IMG/VR virus record: IMGVR_UViG_2711768046_000005
Reading direction: 5' to 3' (one strand)
Length of the DNA stretch: 35,930 nucleotides
From: a virus
Lineage: Duplodnaviria > Heunggongvirae > Uroviricota > Caudoviricetes
Positions 7,047-31,764 of this stretch are shown here, in pieces; the stretch's first letter is position 1; each line of letters opens with the position of its first letter. Below the pieces are notes generated by a model. The model saw nothing but the letters and a program-made list of their open reading frames with translations. It had not been told where the DNA came from and ran no database searches. The position numbers and the translations under genes were made by a program.

Positions 7047-8237
7047 TTAATTGCTGTTAACCGAGGTGACCAGATTTGCCAGGTATTTATCGGTAATACG
7101 CTGGCGCAGGGTCAGGTTTTCAAGAGGAGGCACCGGTGTATAGTCGTAGTCGATATACAGTTTTCCGGCCTTGAGGGTTTCCGCATCGTTGGATTCTTCG
7201 CTGAACCAGCAGGTCGCATCCACGATATAGCCGTTTGTTTTCAGCTCACGGAATTTGGCATTGATGCCGTCAACGATGTCGCGAATCAGCGTTGCGGTGA
7301 TGGGCTTGTCCACCGCCCACATGTGCGCCTCAGCCATCGTGTCGGCCATCACCTGCGCGGTGCGGGTGTAGTTTTCAAAGAGGAACAGCGGGTCATCAGA
7401 GCAGGTACGGTTACCCCAGAAGCGGAAACCGTCGCGGCGAATCAGCGTTGTGACGCCTGCCTCGTTCAGCAGGTCAGCATCGGTGCCGGACTCCTGCAAA
7501 TCCCAGAATACAGATGCGCTGATGCCGGTAACACCGTTTACCCCGACGTTGGACAGCGTTTTATGCCAGCCCTGCTCCTGGTCGATTTTAGCACGCAGCC
7601 CCAGCGCACGGGCGGTGGCATACGCGGTGGCGGTAGTGCTGCTGACCGTATCCCATGCGAGGAAATCCGGCCAGATGACCATCAGCTCACGCTGGCTGAA
7701 ATTCTGGCGGTAGGCTTTCACCTCGGAAATGGTTTTACAGCCCCATGCGCTGATATACCCGAAAGCGCGCAGCTTCTGACAGACTGATGCCAGTGCAACA
7801 GCCACCTCTTTGGTGTCCAGTCCCGGCACGCCGAGAATACGCGGTTTAACACCGGTTACCGACTCTGCCGCCAGCAGGGCTTTCAGTCCGGTATACTGAC
7901 CGTTTTCGTCAGTGGTGCCGATGATATTGGAAACGGTCTGCGCGAGTTTCGTTTCTTCGTCGTCGCCGGTGCCGTCTTCAACACGCACGACAACGGTGAC
8001 CGGTTTTGACTGGTCAGCGATGGCCTGCAACGATGCCGCCAGCGTGCCTTTTTTACCGGCCTTTGCAATTGCGCTCTGCACATTGGTAATCAGCACCGGT
8101 TTATTGAGGGGGAAGGTTTCCGCATCCGCATCGCTGGCCGTGCAGACCATGCCGACAATGGCAGTGGATACAGTGGAAATGACGCGGGTGCCGTCGTTAA
8201 TCTCCAGCACCTGCACGCCGTGATGATAGTCACTCAT
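7047..8237 (-). CDS. FI: Contractile tail sheath protein FI
   Basis: 396 aa, P2 gpFI length and position. GGAG Shine-Dalgarno upstream. Confidence 0.9.
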   Translation of the reverse strand: MSDYHHGVQVLEINDGTRVISTVSTAIVGMVCTASDADAETFPLNKPVLITNVQSAIAKAGKKGTLAASLQAIADQSKPVTVVVRVEDGTGDDEETKLAQTVSNIIGTTDENGQYTGLKALLAAESVTGVKPRILGVPGLDTKEVAVALASVCQKLRAFGYISAWGCKTISEVKAYRQNFSQRELMVIWPDFLAWDTVSSTTATAYATARALGLRAKIDQEQGWHKTLSNVGVNGVTGISASVFWDLQESGTDADLLNEAGVTTLIRRDGFRFWGNRTCSDDPLFLFENYTRTAQVMADTMAEAHMWAVDKPITATLIRDIVDGINAKFRELKTNGYIVDATCWFSEESNDAETLKAGKLYIDYDYTPVPPLENLTLRQRITDKYLANLVTSVNSN

Positions 8238-22847: not shown

Positions 22848-24620
22848 ATGACCATCACCACAGACACCACTCTTTTACACGACCCGCGTCGTCAGGCGGC
22901 GCTGCTGTACTGGCAGGGGTTTTCCGTGCCGCAGATTGCCGCCATGTTGCAGATGAAACGCCCGACGGTGCAGAGCTGGAAACAGCGCGACGGCTGGGAC
23001 AGCGTTGCCCCCATCAGCCGTGTCGAAATGAGTCTGGAAGCGCGACTGACCCAGCTCATCATCAAACCGCAGAAAACCGGTGGTGACTTCAAGGAAATTG
23101 ACCTGCTCGGACGCCAGATTGAACGACTGGCACGGGTAAACCGCTACAGTCAGACCGGCAACGAGGCAGACCTTAATCCGAACGTCGCTAACCGCAACAA
23201 AGGCGGGCGTCGCAAACCGAAAAAGAATTTTTTCAGTGACGAGGCCATCGAAAAGCTGGAGCAGATTTTCTTTGAGCAGTCTTTCGACTATCAGTTGCAC
23301 TGGTATCGCGCCGGGCTTGAGCACCGCATCCGCGATATCCTGAAATCCCGCCAGATTGGCGCGACGTTTTATTTTTCCCGCGAGGCGCTGCTGCGCGCCC
23401 TGAAAACCGGCCATAACCAGATTTTTCTGTCGGCCAGTAAAACGCAGGCGTATGTGTTCCGCGAATACATCATTGCCTTTGCCCGGCTGGTTGACGTTGA
23501 CCTGACCGGTGACCCGATTGTCCTGGGCAATAACAGCGCAAAACTGATTTTTCTCGGCACCAACTCCAACACCGCACAGAGCCATAACGGCGACCTGTAC
23601 GTCGATGAGATTTTCTGGATCCCGAATTTTCAGGTACTGCGTAAGGTGGCATCAGGTATGGCCTCACAGAGTCACCTGCGCTCGACCTATTTCTCCACCC
23701 CGTCCACGCTGGCGCACGACGCCTACCCGTTCTGGTCGGGTGAACTGTTCAACCGGGGACGCGCCAGCGCCGCCGAACGCGTGGAAATCGACATCAGTCA
23801 TAACGCCCTTGCCGGAGGTCTTCTCTGTGCGGACGGCCAGTGGCGGCAGATTGTCACCATTGAGGACGCCCTGAAAGGTGGCTGCACGCTGTTCGACATT
23901 GAGCAGCTCAAACGTGAAAACAGCGCCGACGATTTTAAAAACCTGTTCATGTGTGAATTTGTTGACGATAAGGCGTCGGTGTTCCCGTTCGAGGAGCTGC
24001 AACGCTGCATGGTCGACACGCTGGAAGAATGGGAAGACTATGCGCCGTTTGCCGCCAATCCGTTCGGCTCCCGCCCGGTATGGATTGGTTACGACCCGTC
24101 ACACCGTGGCGACAGCGCCGGATGCGTGGTGCTGGCACCGCCGGTGGTGGCCGGTGGCAAATTCAGAATACTTGAGCGTCACCAGTGGAAAGGCATGGAC
24201 TTTGCCACCCAGGCTGAATCCATCCGCAAACTCACCGAAAAATACAACGTCGAATACATCGGTATTGATGCCACCGGCCTCGGTGTCGGCGTGTTCCAGC
24301 TCGTGCGCTCGTTCTATCCCGCCGCGCGCGACATCCGCTACACGCCGGAAATGAAAACCGCAATGGTGCTCAAGGCAAAAGACGTCATCCGCCGTGGCTG
24401 TCTGGAATATGACGTCAGCGCCACCGACATCACCAGCTCGTTTATGGCTATCCGCAAGACCATGACCAGCAGCGGACGCAGCGCCACCTATGAGGCCAGC
24501 CGCAGCGAGGAAGCCAGCCACGCCGACCTCGCCTGGGCGACCATGCACGCCCTGTTAAATGAGCCACTCACCGCCGGTATCAGCACCCCGCTGACATCCA
24601 CCATTCTGGAGTTTTACTGA
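22848..24620 (+). CDS. P: Terminase large (ATPase) subunit P
   Basis: 590 aa from the internal ATG (MTITTDTTLLHDPRRQ...), with GAGG ribosome-binding site. P2 gpP length. Divergent from O. Confidence 0.9.
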   Translation: MTITTDTTLLHDPRRQAALLYWQGFSVPQIAAMLQMKRPTVQSWKQRDGWDSVAPISRVEMSLEARLTQLIIKPQKTGGDFKEIDLLGRQIERLARVNRYSQTGNEADLNPNVANRNKGGRRKPKKNFFSDEAIEKLEQIFFEQSFDYQLHWYRAGLEHRIRDILKSRQIGATFYFSREALLRALKTGHNQIFLSASKTQAYVFREYIIAFARLVDVDLTGDPIVLGNNSAKLIFLGTNSNTAQSHNGDLYVDEIFWIPNFQVLRKVASGMASQSHLRSTYFSTPSTLAHDAYPFWSGELFNRGRASAAERVEIDISHNALAGGLLCADGQWRQIVTIEDALKGGCTLFDIEQLKRENSADDFKNLFMCEFVDDKASVFPFEELQRCMVDTLEEWEDYAPFAANPFGSRPVWIGYDPSHRGDSAGCVVLAPPVVAGGKFRILERHQWKGMDFATQAESIRKLTEKYNVEYIGIDATGLGVGVFQLVRSFYPAARDIRYTPEMKTAMVLKAKDVIRRGCLEYDVSATDITSSFMAIRKTMTSSGRSATYEASRSEEASHADLAWATMHALLNEPLTAGISTPLTSTILEFY

Positions 24621-25654
24621 TGAGCAAGAAAAAAGGGAAAACACCGCAACCTGCGGCAAAAAAAATGACCGCCAGCGCCCCGAAAATGGAGGCATTCACC
24701 TTTGGTGAGCCGGTGCCGGTACTCGACCGCCGTGACATTCTGGATTACGTCGAGTGCATCAGTAACGGCAGATGGTATGAGCCGCCGGTCAGCTTTACCG
24801 GTCTGGCGAAAAGCCTGCGTGCTGCCGTGCATCACAGCTCGCCGATTTACGTCAAACGCAATATTCTGGCCTCGACATTTATCCCGCATCCGTGGCTTTC
24901 CCAGCAGGATTTCAGCCGCTTTGTGCTGGATTTTCTGGTGTTCGGTAATGCGTTTCTGGAAAAGCGTTACAGCACCACCGGTAAGGTCATCAGACTGGAA
25001 ACCTCACCGGCAAAATATACCCGCCGTGGCGTGGAGGAGGATGTTTACTGGTGGGTGCCGTCCTTCAACGAGCCGACAGCCTTCACGCCCGGCTCCGTGT
25101 TTCACCTGCTGGAGCCGGATATTAATCAGGAGCTGTACGGCCTGCCGGAATATCTCAGCGCCCTTAACTCTGCCTGGCTGAATGAGTCGGCCACGCTGTT
25201 CCGCCGCAAGTATTACGAAAATGGCGCACATGCCGGATACATCATGTACGTCACCGATGCCGTGCAGGATCGCAACGATATCGAAATGCTTCGCGAAAAC
25301 ATGGTTAAGTCGAAAGGCCGCAATAACTTTAAAAATCTGTTTCTCTATGCCCCGCAGGGGAAAGCCGACGGCATTAAAATTATCCCCCTCAGTGAAGTGG
25401 CGACGAAGGACGATTTTTTTAATATCAAAAAAGCCAGCGCCGCAGACCTGCTGGACGCGCACCGCATCCCCTTTCAGTTGATGGGCGGCAAGCCGGAGAA
25501 CGTCGGGTCGCTGGGTGATATTGAGAAAGTGGCAAAGGTCTTTGTCCGCAATGAGCTTATCCCGCTACAGGACAGGATCCGCGAGATAAACGGCTGGCTC
25601 GGTCAGGAGGTCATCCGCTTTAAAAACTACTCACTGGACACTGACAACGGCTGA
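24620..25654 (+). CDS. Q: Portal protein Q
   Basis: 344 aa, P2 gpQ length. Start overlaps the P stop. Confidence 0.9.
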   Translation: MSKKKGKTPQPAAKKMTASAPKMEAFTFGEPVPVLDRRDILDYVECISNGRWYEPPVSFTGLAKSLRAAVHHSSPIYVKRNILASTFIPHPWLSQQDFSRFVLDFLVFGNAFLEKRYSTTGKVIRLETSPAKYTRRGVEEDVYWWVPSFNEPTAFTPGSVFHLLEPDINQELYGLPEYLSALNSAWLNESATLFRRKYYENGAHAGYIMYVTDAVQDRNDIEMLRENMVKSKGRNNFKNLFLYAPQGKADGIKIIPLSEVATKDDFFNIKKASAADLLDAHRIPFQLMGGKPENVGSLGDIEKVAKVFVRNELIPLQDRIREINGWLGQEVIRFKNYSLDTDNG

Positions 25655-25822: not shown

Positions 25823-25841
25823 GTGCTTTCCCCACCTCGCC
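25823..25841. other. Putative cos site (19-nt cohesive end, ggcgaggtggggaaagcac on the minus strand)
   Basis: Differs at one position from the P2 cos sequence as I recall it (GGCGAGGCGGGGAAAGCAC). Located just downstream of Q, as in P2. Confidence 0.5.
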
Positions 25842-25884
25842 CGCCCGCTTCATGGGTCGGTTTTAATGCAGTTGTATTTAATGG

Positions 25885-25915
25885 AAAAAGCCCTCCAGGA
25901 CTGGAGGGCTTTTCT
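25885..25915. terminator. Bidirectional intrinsic terminator (end of the kinase operon; backup for Q)
   Basis: Perfect 10-bp stem agccctccag / ctggagggct, flanked by AAAA upstream and TTTCT downstream. Lies 55 bp past the kinase 2 stop. Confidence 0.65.
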
Positions 25916-25969
25916 ATTAGAGTTCGTAAAATGCTCATGCAAATTCACGCGTTATGCTGCAAAAAACAA

Positions 25970-27037
25970 TCATTTCTTAGCTTTCACAACCGGATGCGCG
26001 CGATCATGTCCACCGCCACGATGCTTAGAAAATATAACCTTTTCATTAGTAAAAGGTTTTTGGCCATAGACACTATCATAGTGGAAAAAGACGTTCGGAA
26101 GATGAGGCACACGGATGAATCCATACTTCACTCTAGTATCACCGATGACCCCAAAAACCCTTGTACTTACTGGGTAGCATAGTTCACCACAACGCATCAC
26201 TAATTCATCTGCTGTTGGGCGTTCAGAAGGTTCCAATTTTAAACAATCTTCTATAAGTTTAATTATTTCATTTGCCAATGGCGCATACTGTCTATTTGAA
26301 AATATAAAGTCAGGGTAAGGAACATGCGTGCCAGAAAGTATTTTTGGTATAGCCATATAACCAATACCAAAAGGGTATTTTCCAGTAAGAATCCTGAACA
26401 TCATCGCACCCAATGCCCAAATATCTGTAGGTTTCGAAACCTTACCTTGACTCTGTATGATTTCCGGTGCCATATATGGCAAAGCCCCGATAGCCGTTTG
26501 CGAAGAACTAATTGAATCTTGACCATTTCTTGCAGCCTCATCAATTTCATCTCCGGCCATCTTTGAAATGCCGAAATCCGTAATTTTTATCTCTGTAGCA
26601 TTGATACCACCGCCTACCATTATATTTGAAGGTTTGAGGTCCCGGTGTATGACGTCAACATGATGCGAAGCAGACAGAGCTTTAGCTAAATTATGAAATA
26701 TTTTAGCAGTTAAATATGGATCAACACTTGAATAAGTGTCTAAAATAGCCTTATCCAAGTCAACTCCATCAATAAATTCCTCCGTTAAAAACTCTCTACC
26801 CTCATCATCAATGAAGTAATCTAAGGTTTTAGCCACATTAGGATGATTAACCCTTGATGCTAATATTGCACTTCTATGAAACCTTTTTTCAGCAGATTTA
26901 TTTTTGGGAGTTTTGAGAGCCACATGCCTCGAGAGAATATTATCCATTGCCAAATAAACTTTTTGCATACCGCCTTCACCAATCTCCCTCAATATTGTAT
27001 ATCTGCTAACTTGAATTCCTGGAGTCAGATTTATCAT
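25970..27037 (-). CDS. Hanks-type Ser/Thr protein kinase with C-terminal cold-shock-like OB-fold domain (third gene of the cargo operon)
   Basis: 355 aa. Kinase motifs GEGGMQKVY, VALK, HRDLKPSN, DFG, PYMAPE and DIWALG are all intact. C-terminal aa 292-338 (FGVIGDTRVKYGFIRV...NVFFHYDSV...EKVIFS) resemble CspA RNP1/RNP2. GGAGG ribosome-binding site; ATGA overlap with the upstream gene. AT-rich. Confidence 0.85.
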   Translation of the reverse strand: MINLTPGIQVSRYTILREIGEGGMQKVYLAMDNILSRHVALKTPKNKSAEKRFHRSAILASRVNHPNVAKTLDYFIDDEGREFLTEEFIDGVDLDKAILDTYSSVDPYLTAKIFHNLAKALSASHHVDVIHRDLKPSNIMVGGGINATEIKITDFGISKMAGDEIDEAARNGQDSISSSQTAIGALPYMAPEIIQSQGKVSKPTDIWALGAMMFRILTGKYPFGIGYMAIPKILSGTHVPYPDFIFSNRQYAPLANEIIKLIEDCLKLEPSERPTADELVMRCGELCYPVSTRVFGVIGDTRVKYGFIRVPHLPNVFFHYDSVYGQKPFTNEKVIFSKHRGGGHDRAHPVVKAKK

Positions 27038-28098
27038 AACACCACCTCCGGATGGGAAAGGTCAAATGTAATGAAGACCCGCTCTTTTCTTGGCCGAGAA
27101 GTCTCTCCCAGAATAATAACACATGAATCAGGCAAAATATTATATTGCTTTGCAGCTATATTATTCACATACACCTCACCACTTAAACTCGATATATAAA
27201 ACTCTGAACCAGAATATTTCACCTCAATAGTCCCGACCCCTGAATTATTAAAAGCCGCAGATTTATTTGTTGAAGAAATGATGACGGGTGGAGTGTTATC
27301 AGAGATTAACAATGCTCTATGAGAGTTGTAGAGAACGAATTTTTTTAGAGTCTGACACACATCAGCCATATCAGGTCTCTCACAAGGATTCGTATCTAAA
27401 CATTGGAAAAGCAATTCTTTTACCTGAGTTGGTAACTGTATATTAGAATTATCAAAAGGATTAGACAATAATTTTTTGGGTAAAACTCTCATTTCCGGTG
27501 GTAGTGGGGTCTTAGCCAAAAACATGGCCGTTACAGCAAAAGCATATGTATCTATGGATTTTGTAAACGCTACTTGATGTAAAAATAATTCAGGTGCAGC
27601 ATATGTTGGGGTTCCTTTAAAACCTATTGTATTAGCTTCATCAACATTTCTAGATAGTCCGAAGTCATAAATCTTCACTACTCCCTCAGAATCAATTTTC
27701 ATGTTCCCAGGCTTGATATCCCTATGAATAATATCATGAGAATGTATCTCAGAAATACCCGAAGATATTTGCCACAAAATTTTAATCAAATCTTCAGAAT
27801 TTAATATGCGATCCTCTACTTCCAATAATGAAGGTCCGTCAACATACTCTTCGACTATAGCAATTCCTTTACCTTGATAATTAATAACATCATAAAGCTC
27901 TACTACATGTTTTGATCTTAATTTCATCAATGCTGATAACTCATCCATCATTCGAGGAGAATCATCAGGATTACTTATGGACTTTATAGCGACAAATCTT
28001 TCGAGGTGAGTATCCAAGCATTTGATCACGCAACCAAATCCTCCCGAAGCCTCTTCTTCAGTCCTCTTATATCTTGCAGGGAGAGTAAAATTAGTCAT
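27034..28098 (-). CDS. Hanks-type Ser/Thr protein kinase with C-terminal FHA-like region (second gene of the cargo operon)
   Basis: 354 aa. Kinase motifs SGGFGCV, VAIK, HRDIKPGN, DFG and GTPTYAAPE are intact. C-terminal aa 262-345 have an FHA-like pattern (SLSGEVYVNN...ILPDSCVIILGE) but lack the canonical Arg/His. AAGGAG ribosome-binding site; 8-nt overlap with the phosphatase gene. Confidence 0.85.
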   Translation of the reverse strand: MTNFTLPARYKRTEEEASGGFGCVIKCLDTHLERFVAIKSISNPDDSPRMMDELSALMKLRSKHVVELYDVINYQGKGIAIVEEYVDGPSLLEVEDRILNSEDLIKILWQISSGISEIHSHDIIHRDIKPGNMKIDSEGVVKIYDFGLSRNVDEANTIGFKGTPTYAAPELFLHQVAFTKSIDTYAFAVTAMFLAKTPLPPEMRVLPKKLLSNPFDNSNIQLPTQVKELLFQCLDTNPCERPDMADVCQTLKKFVLYNSHRALLISDNTPPVIISSTNKSAAFNNSGVGTIEVKYSGSEFYISSLSGEVYVNNIAAKQYNILPDSCVIILGETSRPRKERVFITFDLSHPEVVL

Positions 28099-29257
28099 CT
28101 TTATCTCCTTTAGTGGAGTTTTTCTCAGAGAATGAAATATCTAACTGTGAAATATTATCTAACTTATCATTATTGTTAGCTTCGATAACATTCCTTCCCT
28201 CATCACTCTTTATATTACTATTTTTTTTCTTTGTACGTGATTTCCTTTTCGATACATTTTTTTTGTTAGAAATTTCATTACTGCATTCTAACTCAGTAAC
28301 TTTTCTATCAATAACATTTTCAACCGTAGCTGAGTTAGGTATATCTAACGGCGCAGGTTGCACGCTAATTACTTTCATCTCACCAAAAGGATCCCATAAA
28401 TTAATTACATCCCCAGATGATACATCCAAAGCACTTAGGATGTTCGAAATCTCAACTACCGCAATCGACGCATTATCAAATCCACCAAACCAACTAGCTA
28501 GATCTATAACTCTTTTAGCGAACACTCCAGTATTATTGGAGTGAGCATATAATTTTCTCAAATTATTACTGTCAATGGTATGAGCACCATCTGAAGTTAA
28601 TGCAACCACCCCAGGTACGAGCCGAATATCGTGAAAATGTATCTCAAGAACACCATCAAGACCTATAAACTGTACTAACTCGCCACCTAACCTAGAATCA
28701 ATAACACCTGAGTCACTACCAAGATGCTCATTATATTTCTTTGCCAATACAGCTAATGTATCATCCTCACTAATTTGTTTTATGTGTTCAGCATTAATGG
28801 AATATATGCGACTATCCCCGACATTTATTGCTGTAATGTTATCGGAGTCATCTACAGCTAAGGCAGATAACGTAGCCCCACCGTTCCCATTATATACTTT
28901 CAAAACCGATTCATTTGCTTTTAAAACGGCGATTTCAAGACATTGTCTAATTGGCAAGCCTGAGTGTTTAATTATCTCGGTAAAAAAAGATGATACGGTC
29001 AATGAAGCAGCATTCGCTCCCCCTTCCATCCCCCCCATACCATCTGCTAAAGCGATGACAATCATGTCCTTATTCTTACTAAAAGGACGAAATTTTAATA
29101 CAGCTACCCGGTCTTGGTTCTCTTTCCTAACTAAACCTATGTCTGTAGCAATAGCTGCAGGTAGCATAGATACTCTTCGTACAGATGAAGAGATATTTTT
29201 TCTATGCAGCCAAGCGTGTATCTGTTCATGAAGGATCTCGTAAGAGTCTCGACTCAC
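28091..29257 (-). CDS. PP2C-family (PPM) Ser/Thr phosphatase with Lys/Asn-rich low-complexity C-terminal tail (first gene of the cargo operon)
   Basis: 388 aa from a GTG start with AGGAGG upstream; an alternative ATG start lies at 29167. PPM motifs TDIGLVRKENQDR, ALADGMGG, NVGDSRIY, LTSDGAHT and DNASIAVV are present. The tail (aa 272-388) is rich in K, N, S and D. Confidence 0.8.
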   Translation of the reverse strand: MSRDSYEILHEQIHAWLHRKNISSSVRRVSMLPAAIATDIGLVRKENQDRVAVLKFRPFSKNKDMIVIALADGMGGMEGGANAASLTVSSFFTEIIKHSGLPIRQCLEIAVLKANESVLKVYNGNGGATLSALAVDDSDNITAINVGDSRIYSINAEHIKQISEDDTLAVLAKKYNEHLGSDSGVIDSRLGGELVQFIGLDGVLEIHFHDIRLVPGVVALTSDGAHTIDSNNLRKLYAHSNNTGVFAKRVIDLASWFGGFDNASIAVVEISNILSALDVSSGDVINLWDPFGEMKVISVQPAPLDIPNSATVENVIDRKVTELECSNEISNKKNVSKRKSRTKKKNSNIKSDEGRNVIEANNNDKLDNISQLDISFSEKNSTKGDKDD

Positions 29258-29478
29258 AGCGCCTCCTCAAGCAAGCATTTCTCCGAAGCTATAGATTACA
29301 AAACACTAACGGCAATTCCTAGCATTACCCACTCAATTCCATTAGAAAACTGACGTAGTACAGTTAGTTGAATATTATTGTGATGACGAATGCCAATCCT
29401 CTGATCACGCTGATTACAATATCACAACTCCCCGCTCTCCGATTCACAGTATTCAGTGATACAGAATATCACCTCGTA

Positions 29479-31764
29479 CTATATACATCGTTGATTTATT
29501 GGAAGCCCCGGCCACTCATCAACAACCGGATATGTAAATTTTTTCTCGCCATATGCCACCCTCGCACCTCGTGCTAGTACATCCAGCTCCCACCGTTCCG
29601 GCGTGATGCCATGCTGTGCGAGGTCAAACCGGATACGCGATATCTGGTCGCGCTGCGATTTAGTCAGCCTTGCCGATGGCGCAATTTCATTAGGTTTTAA
29701 CGGGCCTCCGTTTCTCTGCTGACGATTTGGTGTTCTCAGGCCGTGTTTTAATGCGCCCCTGAGCGCCCTCACTACATCCGGGTCATTCCATTCGATAACA
29801 CCTTCATCAACCAGATTAAGTACTGCTGCGGCGTGCTCAGAAGGTGTGGGAGCCGGTAACGAAGTATCACCACCAGTGAGCTTTCCACAGTTATTGACAG
29901 GACTCCGAGGCGCGACGATGCCGCTTTTTAAAGTCAAAGGCTCAACGACCGGAACTTTCGGCACAATGCGCCAGTCCGTCGTTCTGGTGATATGAATATG
30001 ACGCGCGCCGAGATGCGGCGCGTAAATGCCGACCACTCTCTCGACTTCTTCCTCGTACTCGTTAACTTCATCCGACGGGCTACGGGCGACTCTGACAGTC
30101 TGACAATCGCGCGGGACATTTGCCCCACCCTGCGCGCTGATATACAACGCAAAATCACCACTGTCTGCGGCGGCGCGTGCAGCCTCGACGCGCTCGTCAA
30201 ACTCATCAGCAATGCTGACGCCGCGCGGCAATTTGCGTAGTTCACGGTAAGCCCCCATTGTCGGCAGGCCAACCGTTTTAAATTGCGGGATGCGCCACGT
30301 TGACGCCCATGCGGTAACAGCCGCTGCAGTGTCTTTCAGCGGCCTGCCGGTGTCGTTATCGAGCTGACCATCCAGTGCATAGCCGTCGATGTTTTTTGAA
30401 ATGTATTTCGCGATATATCCCGCAGCACCGCCCCGGTTAAGGTGTTTTGCCTGAAAACGGTTTCGCGCGGCTCCTCTTTCGTCGCCATCCTCTTTGAGCG
30501 CATAGCGACGCATGATTTCGATAATCTGGTTACGCTGGCGTGAATTACAAAAAAGCATCATATGCCAGTGCGGCGTTCCGTCGTGGTGTGGCTCGACGAC
30601 ACGCAAACCGTAGACCTGTAAATCATTATCCTTGAATGCCGTGCGCATCAGGCTCCAGATACGGCAGAGATAACGCTGCGCATCCTTTGGATTAAATGCC
30701 TCATCGTTCCAGCCGTGATTAAGCTGCACGGTTTTACTTTCGCCTTTTCCTACCTGACGTGTCGGGTGATACTTTGACGGCGCGGTCAGCGTGATAAACA
30801 TCCCCACATCACCCTCTGCAGCGGCGTAACGCTCAATACCGGCAATGGTGTTCATCAGCTCCATCCGGCGAATTTCAGGATTAGAAATACTGCCCATCAC
30901 CTTACTGATAAGGTCGATGCGCTCGCCGGTTTCCCTGTTTTCAAGGTCACACGATTTAAGAAATTCCAGATTTGCCTGGCGGCGCGCACGCACATCACGA
31001 ATGGCGTGTTTACTGGCATAAGGAGAACGGTCTTTATTGACCTCCCCGACAGCTATCAGTAACGCTTCATGCCAGCGCATACGCTGGCCTTTAAGCTGAT
31101 GAGTCCACCACTCATCGTTAAACAGACGGGCAATGGCAGAATATGCCTGCCTCGTGGTCATCTGTCCTTTACGGTATTTTTTCCAGTAGAGCGGGGAAAT
31201 ATTGAAAGCACGTGCAGCGCCAGCAACATGACCATACAGGTGAGCCTGCGCCTCATCCGTAAACAGCGATTCTTTTTCACCATGCGCATCAACCCATGCA
31301 TCGCAGAGTTCCTCATACATCATGAAAAGCTGCGATGAGATACGGGCGGCAAACTTTTTCAGCTCCTTGTCATTCATTCCCGGCAGGCGCGCATAGTGGT
31401 CACGCTCTGCCAGAAACAGCAACGACGCGTCGGTGTTCATTTCATGGCGCTGATTCACACGCTCAATGCGCGGCCATAAACGACGCTGAAAAGTAGATGT
31501 GAGGAAATAAAACCCGTGCACCGGGCTTTTATTGCGCCGGATGTAGTCATAGCGTGAAGTAAACAGCGAGCGCAAAAAGTAAGGCAGGCGGTTAATCGTG
31601 GATAAAACACCTTGCACCTGACGCATCTCGTCACGTGTAAGAGGTCTTTCGCGCCCGACAGCCTCGCGTGGCGCGTTCCATGCATAAGCACCGGTAAATG
31701 CCTTACCGGTGCCTGCGGTAAATGCTGACGGAGGGACAAAACACCCGGAGGCTTTAACGGCCAT
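29479..31764 (-). CDS. A: Replication initiation protein A (rolling-circle nickase)
   Basis: 761 aa from the internal ATG (MAVKASG...), P2 gpA length. Conserved HxH nickase region (EPHHDGTPHWHMM) and active-site Tyr region (AGYIAKYISKNIDGY). Confidence 0.9.
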   Translation of the reverse strand: MAVKASGCFVPPSAFTAGTGKAFTGAYAWNAPREAVGRERPLTRDEMRQVQGVLSTINRLPYFLRSLFTSRYDYIRRNKSPVHGFYFLTSTFQRRLWPRIERVNQRHEMNTDASLLFLAERDHYARLPGMNDKELKKFAARISSQLFMMYEELCDAWVDAHGEKESLFTDEAQAHLYGHVAGAARAFNISPLYWKKYRKGQMTTRQAYSAIARLFNDEWWTHQLKGQRMRWHEALLIAVGEVNKDRSPYASKHAIRDVRARRQANLEFLKSCDLENRETGERIDLISKVMGSISNPEIRRMELMNTIAGIERYAAAEGDVGMFITLTAPSKYHPTRQVGKGESKTVQLNHGWNDEAFNPKDAQRYLCRIWSLMRTAFKDNDLQVYGLRVVEPHHDGTPHWHMMLFCNSRQRNQIIEIMRRYALKEDGDERGAARNRFQAKHLNRGGAAGYIAKYISKNIDGYALDGQLDNDTGRPLKDTAAAVTAWASTWRIPQFKTVGLPTMGAYRELRKLPRGVSIADEFDERVEAARAAADSGDFALYISAQGGANVPRDCQTVRVARSPSDEVNEYEEEVERVVGIYAPHLGARHIHITRTTDWRIVPKVPVVEPLTLKSGIVAPRSPVNNCGKLTGGDTSLPAPTPSEHAAAVLNLVDEGVIEWNDPDVVRALRGALKHGLRTPNRQQRNGGPLKPNEIAPSARLTKSQRDQISRIRFDLAQHGITPERWELDVLARGARVAYGEKKFTYPVVDEWPGLPINQRCI

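Follow-up and report, generated by a model that had tools for sequence, protein, structure and literature searches.

Between its cos end and replication gene A, where P2 carries tin and old, the P2-like prophage DNA analysed here (the window, 35,930 nucleotides) holds three overlapping genes. The original prediction, made from the sequence, read them as a phosphatase and two kinases forming an anti-phage system, and left open whether the arrangement had been catalogued. We asked to which system these genes belong, and what they may do for the lysogen. Their order, domains and homology make it very probable that the cassette is a further allele of the known KKP (kinase-kinase-phosphatase) module, with the order pfpC-pfkB-pfkA. 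The module PfpC-PfkB-PfkA was described by Guo et al. (2024, Nat Commun 15:7244, PMC11341870; preprint 2022).

Layout and genomic position of the cassette

The features of the locus are collected in Table 1. From the ORF coordinates, pfpC and pfkB overlap by 8 nt and pfkB and pfkA by 4 nt, and the three starts are preceded by the Shine-Dalgarno sequences GAGGAGG, AAAGGAG and GGAGGTGG, in that order. The cassette genes are AT-rich, with a GC content of 0.36-0.39 whereas gene A and the portal gene on either side have 0.53-0.54. All of this had been read correctly in the original prediction, as had the terminator behind the last gene, a GC-rich hairpin with a run of A and a run of T. Because of these flanking runs the hairpin is, by its sequence, bidirectional in form, and a terminator scan also picked it up, as a minus-strand terminator at 25902-25889. 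The spacer ahead of pfpC showed neither a minus-strand sigma-70 consensus nor a terminator in a promoter and terminator scan, in which promoter-like matches overall were no commoner than in shuffled sequence.

Table 1. Coordinates of the cassette and of the P2-type features around it
Feature	Position	Strand	Description
P2-type portal protein (gpQ)	24620..25654	+	Pfam Phage_portal; RefSeq annotation
cos cohesive end	25823..25841	-	minus-strand GGCGAGGTGGGGAAAGCAC; 18/19 bases as in P2 cosR
Cargo segment without P2 homology	25871..29506		occupies the P2 slot of orf91-tin-old
Terminator-like hairpin, 3' of pfkA	25885..25913		9-bp GC-rich stem GCCCTCCAG/CTGGAGGGC, A5 and T4 flanks
pfkA-like gene	25970..27037	-	Hanks Ser/Thr kinase with C-terminal cold-shock domain; 355 aa, 1068 bp
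pfkB-like gene	27034..28098	-	Hanks Ser/Thr kinase with C-terminal FHA-fold domain; 354 aa, 1065 bp
pfpC-like gene	28091..29257	-	PP2C Ser/Thr phosphatase; 388 aa, 1167 bp, GTG start; RefSeq WP_125075118.1
Spacer, gene A stop to pfpC start	29258..29478	-	221 nt; GAGGAGG 5 nt upstream of GTG
P2 gene A replication endonuclease	29479..31764	-	Pfam Phage_GPA E 1.6e-123; RefSeq 'replication endonuclease'; 95% nt identity to P2 gene A

A blastn comparison with P2 (AF063097) gave one block of homology at 32000-29507 (95%, gene A) and another at 25870-25823 (94%, the final 48 nt before the cos end). Homology breaks off at 29507, still within the terminal part of gene A, and is picked up again at 25870; therefore the cassette replaces orf91-tin-old exactly, as a non-homologous insert in a P2-like prophage, with the gene A 3' end on one side and the final ~50 nt ahead of cos on the other. 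The placement in the tin/old position thus stands. The tin and old genes of P2 share with the cassette this insertion slot and, if the KKP assignment is right, the role of lysogenic-conversion genes that exclude other phages. However, their proteins are unrelated to those of the cassette, and old-tin is transcribed opposite to gene A from its own promoter, whereas the cassette is oriented like gene A.

Among 1670 complete E. coli genomes having this P2-type portal gene, KKP was present in 18, and by this distribution it is a variable cargo of the tin/old hotspot of P2-like E. coli prophages. Three different P2 hotspots of the prophage in the window contain candidate cargo.

Domain structure of the three proteins

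PfpC consists of a catalytic domain (~residues 38-270) and a Lys/Asn/Ser-rich tail from ~residue 290. It matched Pfam PP2C_2 (PF13672) with 26.7 bits against a cut-off of 24, and the NCBIfam Stp1/IreP PP2C profile with an E value of 1.5e-29 over residues 38-268. Its motifs, including those for metal binding, are intact (RKENQD44, DGMGG72, GDSR147, SDG222, DNAS261). Pfam Pkinase (PF00069) was found in the two kinase genes with E values of 1.7e-42 and 4.7e-45. The catalytic motifs are VAIK36, HRDIKPGN125, DFG145 and APE168 in PfkB, and GEGGM20, VALK39, HRDLKPSN131, DFG154 and APE190 in PfkA. The profile searches therefore uphold the earlier reading of a PP2C phosphatase with two complete Hanks kinases. 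The PHROGs labels are 'serine-threonine kinase' for both kinases and 'unknown function' for the phosphatase family. Among deposited phage genomes, only one full-length homologue of PfkA was found, in Klebsiella phage Kp4865-2 (45% identity). A decayed or inactive cassette is ruled out by the intact catalytic motifs and by the conservation of the cassette sequence, which is 99.9-100% in 14 complete genomes.

Each kinase carries a different C-terminal appendage, for which a cold-shock domain (CSD) and an FHA domain had been guessed. Structure models confirm both guesses, with a predicted FHA fold following the kinase domain of PfkB (~residues 9-250 and 251-354, respectively) and a predicted cold-shock domain following that of PfkA (~residues 11-283 and 284-355), with a GFI motif at 306-308. 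Pfam, proposed earlier as a check on all of these domains, did not detect the FHA domain in PfkB, and none of 120 homologues among the matches listed had a precomputed match to PF00498. Judged by sequence pattern, the canonical phosphothreonine-binding residues of FHA domains (GR, SxxH, NG) do not appear to be conserved in PfkB.

Relation to the KKP system

In the published search rule for KKP, a PP2C gene and two kinase genes are adjacent on the same strand and each 900-1300 bp long (Methods of PMC11341870). The three window genes conform to it in order, strand and length (Table 1), and their products have the KKP domains: a PF13672 phosphatase, two PF00069 kinases with HRD and DFG, a C-terminal FHA domain in PfkB, and a C-terminal CSD in PfkA with GFI, where GFI or GFA is expected. 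Alignments with the kinases encoded by Pf6 ran end to end, with 52% identity for PfkA (E 2e-121) and 43% for PfkB (E 7e-96). The same triad with the same 4-nt overlap between the kinase genes occurs in Pseudomonas zeae and in Pseudoalteromonas; in the latter the 8-nt overlap of phosphatase and kinase genes is also found, and the triad adjoins an integrase gene.

A closer relative is the tested module KKP_EC039 of E. coli 15EC039. The five primers used to clone it all fit the KKP in E. coli VG12A2, four exactly and the fifth with a one-base difference (primer ATG versus native GTG start), and we link the two on the basis of these matches. Like the cassette in the window, the VG12A2 allele is flanked by the portal gene and gene A, which places both alleles in one P2 slot, bounded by portal/cos and gene A. 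They agree in the order and sizes of their genes and in having overlapping frames, and both encode a PP2C phosphatase, a kinase with FHA domain and a kinase with CSD and GFI motif. The two alleles are 71% identical in nucleotide sequence, and PfpC, PfkB and PfkA are 66, 68 and 81% identical in amino acid sequence. PfpC, aligned over its full length, is the most diverged component, and its tail differs. The window allele is not KKP_EC039 itself, because the primers fail on the window, save pfkB-R with 2 mismatches, and fit the VG12A2 allele.

Proposed mechanism and alternative roles

Experiments on KKP homologues have shown a phospho-signalling anti-phage system of the kind predicted for this locus (PMC11341870). 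In that work PfkA and PfkB were jointly toxic and the PP2C phosphatase PfpC neutralised both. Four KKP modules, one of them from an E. coli prophage, protected against T4 and T-odd phages; KKP_EC039 blocked T4, the trigger being T4 Gp59, which binds and inhibits PfpC, with an inhibition in vitro that was only modest (PMC11341870). For the window allele we infer toxicity, defence, phage range and trigger from these homologues.

On this basis PfkB and PfkA would interact and be active only together. Left unrestrained, they would phosphorylate themselves as well as numerous host proteins involved in replication, translation and cell division, so that growth and phage production would stop. [quoted passage not shown] When a phage infects, one of its proteins (the helicase loader Gp59 of T4 for the tested E. 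coli allele) would bind and inhibit PfpC, the balance would shift to the kinases, and infection would be aborted or stalled. A phosphatase that restrains kinases until infection releases them had been proposed for this locus and agrees with the published mechanism; the accompanying idea of a kinase cascade does not, since the data point to an interacting pair, each kinase needing the other, rather than to a serial cascade (PMC11341870).

The window allele may not share Gp59 sensing or the T4/T-odd range, because PfpC, the proposed sensor, is the component that has diverged most. We consider it possible, if somewhat doubtful, that the window PfpC senses a phage protein other than Gp59 and protects against other phages, given its distance from the tested PfpC, and that the operon is also wired into P2 early transcription, being co-directional with gene A with no terminator between them, and influences P2/P4 lysogeny through phosphorylation of H-NS or StpA. 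If true, a different trigger or a link to lysogeny would extend the known system rather than make a new kind of system. Two KKP alleles in the same E. coli P2 slot offer a comparison that could show how PfpC accounts for trigger specificity.

A related but rather unlikely alternative, compatible with defence, is that regulation of prophages is the main role, with the kinases phosphorylating a nucleoid silencer (H-NS or StpA, cf. MvaU in P. aeruginosa) and thereby controlling induction of P2, of another prophage in the same cell or of a P4 satellite. KKP of Pf6 does regulate lysogeny, controlling Pf4 and Pf6 virion production through MvaU phosphorylation, and its authors propose similar crosstalk between prophages elsewhere (PMC11341870); the orientation of the operon and the lack of a terminator before it may also allow co-transcription with early phage genes. 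However, ~99% of the E. coli genomes with a P2-type prophage are without KKP, which is therefore not part of the P2 lysogeny circuit, so that the refutation foreseen in the original prediction, a conserved lysogeny module of the phage lineage, did not materialise for P2. The slot is moreover a known defence hotspot, and in K-12 expression of the homologous E. coli allele by itself was enough for defence (PMC11341870).

We think it very unlikely that the cassette is an addiction module only, stabilising the prophage by post-segregational killing without phage sensing. Although it combines toxin and antitoxin, both partners are enzymes, neither of them evidently less stable than the other, and all four KKP modules tested gave phage-specific protection, with a phage trigger identified (PMC11341870).

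Comparison with other kinase and phosphatase systems

The TerY-P triad reportedly comprises the vWA protein TerY, a PP2C phosphatase and a Ser/Thr kinase. It resembles the cassette in that a PP2C phosphatase and a Hanks kinase occur together in a defence setting, but the cassette encodes two kinases, one extended by an FHA domain and the other by a CSD, and lacks a vWA protein. TerY-P was ruled out, as foreseen, since the 3.6-kb cargo contains the three cassette genes only, none with a vWA match (ORFs, Pfam).

PD-T4-6 is said to be a single-gene Ser/Thr kinase system. PADLOC matched the cassette kinases to PD-T4-6 and to MAD6 of MADS with E values of 1e-50 to 1e-55, in matches that did not extend beyond the kinase domain (profile positions 6-265/311 and 47-341/659, for instance). 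Neither is known to have the phosphatase, FHA domain or CSD of the cassette, and no MADS genes lie near it; an identity with PD-T4-6 or MAD6 is ruled out by the kinase-domain-only matches and the absent gene context. The PADLOC check suggested earlier thus found the kinases through generic profiles and gave no match for the phosphatase (v2.0.0, 2023).

Stk2 of Staphylococcus (Depardieu et al. 2016) is, as cited in PMC11341870, a single host-encoded kinase of Gram-positive bacteria. According to that citing account, it shares the mode of defence, in which host proteins are broadly phosphorylated on Ser/Thr and growth is arrested as a result; unlike the cassette, it is described there without a dedicated phosphatase antitoxin or a second kinase.

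That the genes form a new, uncatalogued kinase defence system has next to no probability: PADLOC v2.0.0 lacks a model for the phosphatase and matches the kinases only by generic kinase-domain profiles (mad6, PD-T4-6, MkoA), and two surveys of P2/P4 hotspots (PMC9122126, PMC13586616) mention neither KKP nor a phosphatase, but the reading is refuted by KKP homology and architecture, with every sequence-testable KKP feature found and an allele of 66-81% identity at the same location fitting the KKP_EC039 primers. The question whether the arrangement is catalogued is thereby answered, as publications already cover the system, its architecture, its mechanism and its occurrence in prophages of P2 and P4, the census counting >1200 clusters, many of them in such prophages (PMC11341870). 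The assignment is of use for annotation: RefSeq names are generic, PADLOC 2.0.0 is without a model for KKP, and automated annotation may wrongly report the kinases as PD-T4-6 or MAD6.

Identification of a kinase-kinase-phosphatase cassette

Examination of the region between cos and gene A bore out the three overlapping minus-strand ORFs of the original prediction, which overlap by 8 nt (phosphatase-kinase) and 4 nt (kinase-kinase). Their GC content (0.36–0.39, versus 0.53–0.54 in the adjacent gene A and portal gene) agrees with the AT-richness claimed for them. The first gene contains a Pfam PP2C_2 domain, the PP2C metal-binding motifs, and a whole-domain match to the NCBIfam Stp1-type PP2C (E = 1.5e-29), and the other two contain Pkinase domains (E = 1.7e-42 and 4.7e-45), as expected for the predicted phosphatase and two kinases. 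All of the predicted kinase catalytic motifs (VAIK/VALK, HRDxKxxN, DFG and APE) were found, together with a Shine-Dalgarno sequence upstream of each of the three starts, also predicted. A hairpin 3′ of the last gene, with a 9-bp GC stem between an A run and a T run, corresponds to the proposed bidirectional terminator.

Features of the KKP operon and other cargo slots in the window
Feature	Coordinates	Strand	Description
Gene A	29479-31764	-	early replication gene, flank of operon
Spacer between gene A and operon	29258-29478		221 nt
PP2C phosphatase ORF (PfpC-like)	28091-29257	-	388 aa, GTG start
Kinase ORF (PfkB-like)	27034-28098	-	354 aa
PfkB C-terminal domain	27034-27348	-	
Kinase ORF (PfkA-like)	25970-27037	-	355 aa
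Cargo segment	25871-29506		3.6 kb
cos	25823-25841		19 nt
Tail sheath gene	7047-8237	-	
Z/fun cargo gene	8752-10086	+	444 aa
Tail-fibre assembly gene	10317-10844	-	
gpV-like gene	14811-15515	-	
orf30-slot cargo gene	15530-16273	+	247 aa
gpS-like gene	16478-16930	-	

The kinase-kinase-phosphatase module (KKP), defined in Guo et al. 2024 (PMC11341870; preprint 2022), consists of the PP2C phosphatase PfpC, followed by PfkB (kinase and FHA domains) and PfkA (kinase and cold-shock domain, CSD, with a GFI/GFA motif). More than 1200 clusters were found in Gram-negative bacteria; prophages, among them P2, P4, Mu-like and Pf6-like ones, carry >90% of these (PMC11341870). In a comparison with the Pf6 sequences from Supplementary Tables 5-6 of that paper, the last kinase of the window aligned end-to-end with PfkA (52% identity, E = 2e-121), and the middle kinase with PfkB (43% identity, E = 7e-96), in both cases including the C-terminal domain. 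Judged from its sequence, the cassette shows all of the defining features of KKP that can be assessed at this level. It is an already known system: the original prediction left undecided whether the arrangement was catalogued, and it is, as KKP (PMC11341870).

Predicted fold of the PfkB C-terminal domain

A Pfam search with a loosened threshold still gave no FHA match in the window PfkB, and a precomputed PF00498 (FHA) match was likewise missing from all 120 listed homologues. A profile search of PDB sequences returned nothing meaningful. Because of these negative searches, both C-terminal domains were modelled from homologue alignments, and that of PfkB is predicted to adopt an FHA fold. In a family alignment of this domain (homologues P0046-P0164), the invariant residues are H10, Y45, F50, N62, N63, G81, R90, D96, S98 and P100 (domain numbering), and the canonical phosphothreonine-binding residues (GR, SxxH, NG) seem not to be conserved. 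Instead of reading phosphopeptides, the domain may be a protein-protein module that binds the CSD of PfkA.

Genomic context and distribution

The window is a P2-like prophage, judging from the annotation that RefSeq gives to an identical locus and from Pfam matches to Phage_GPA and Phage_portal. Comparison with the P2 sequence and map (AF063097) showed homology through gene A to position 29507, resuming at 25870-25823, the final 48 nt ahead of the cohesive end; cos has one mismatch relative to P2 cosR. The cargo segment is therefore an exact replacement of P2 orf91-tin-old, in the tin/old slot originally claimed. P2 old-tin runs opposite to gene A from its own promoter near cos, whereas the KKP operon is co-oriented with gene A. 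A scan of the minus strand of the spacer found neither a recognisable terminator nor a consensus sigma-70 promoter.

The window allele is present in 14 of 5426 complete E. coli genomes (99.9–100% identical). A distant blastn search of these genomes revealed a second KKP allele, with 71% nucleotide identity, filling the identical P2 slot in 4 genomes. One carrier is E. coli VG12A2 (locus L002, NZ_CP128592.1 1728002-1731310), with the same portal and gene A neighbours. This allele is EC039-type: of the five published cloning primers for KKP_EC039, the allele from E. coli 15EC039 tested in PMC11341870 (Supplementary Table 13), all match VG12A2, four exactly and the fifth differing by one base (ATG in the primer, native GTG start). 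The primers fail to match the window, ruling out that its allele is KKP_EC039. Identities between the window and VG12A2 proteins are 66% (PfpC), 68% (PfkB) and 81% (PfkA); the far better conservation of PfkA would fit diversifying pressure acting on the sensor/antitoxin side.

Since the P2-type portal gene occurs in 1670 complete E. coli genomes, against 14 and 4 carriers of the two alleles, KKP is a rare, variable cargo (~1% of genomes with this P2-type prophage), and not a conserved lysogeny or replication module of P2. The cassette might serve mainly to regulate the prophage, as with Pf6 and MvaU; its co-orientation with gene A would fit this, but ~99% of these genomes lack KKP. Pseudomonas zeae and Pseudoalteromonas also have this triad, in both cases with the 4-nt kinase-kinase overlap; that of Pseudoalteromonas also has the 8-nt phosphatase-kinase overlap, and adjoins an integrase. 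In the E. coli NDM2 assembly, the KKP region is found on the chromosome (NZ_CP083886.1) and on a 43,140-bp 'plasmid' record (NZ_CP083887.1); the latter is most likely the P2-like prophage in excised, circular form, assembled separately.

Proposed mechanism

In KKP homologues, each kinase alone is non-toxic, and both together arrest growth, dependent on the HRD/DFG motifs, the CSD GFI motif and the FHA domain (PMC11341870). PfkA and PfkB make contact via their kinase domains and also via the FHA/CSD domains, and jointly phosphorylate themselves and many essential host proteins, e.g. PolA, TopA, DnaG, InfB, FtsZ and MinCE; their neutralisation requires the PfpC phosphatase motifs (PMC11341870). 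Gp59, found through T4 escape mutants, binds PfpC_EC039, modestly lowering its activity and triggering toxicity (PMC11341870). The phospho-signalling anti-phage reading of the original prediction matches this published mechanism and is thereby supported; by homology, the window allele would act in the same way. Its trigger and phage range may differ from those of the tested allele, because divergence is greatest in PfpC, the sensor. An addiction function alone is unlikely, as homologues give phage-specific protection, and TerY-P is ruled out by the absence of a vWA protein, as previously claimed. In the proposed PADLOC check, the kinases matched mad6, PD-T4-6 and MkoA over the kinase domain only, and the phosphatase had no match.

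Other cargo genes of the prophage

An AT-rich gene (GC 0.33–0.40) in the P2 Z/fun hotspot, between the tail sheath and tail-fibre assembly genes, contains an FRG domain (PF08867, E = 2.8e-22). Matches were also obtained to PDC-S15, a PADLOC candidate system (E = 7e-99), and to phrog_4962 (unknown function). The gene is probably a second item of defence cargo in this prophage. The P2 orf30 slot, between the gpV-like and gpS-like genes, is a third filled cargo slot. Its AT-rich gene (GC 0.34–0.36) had no match in Pfam or PADLOC, and encodes a phrog_12680-type protein (unknown function; full-length match, E = 3e-164).
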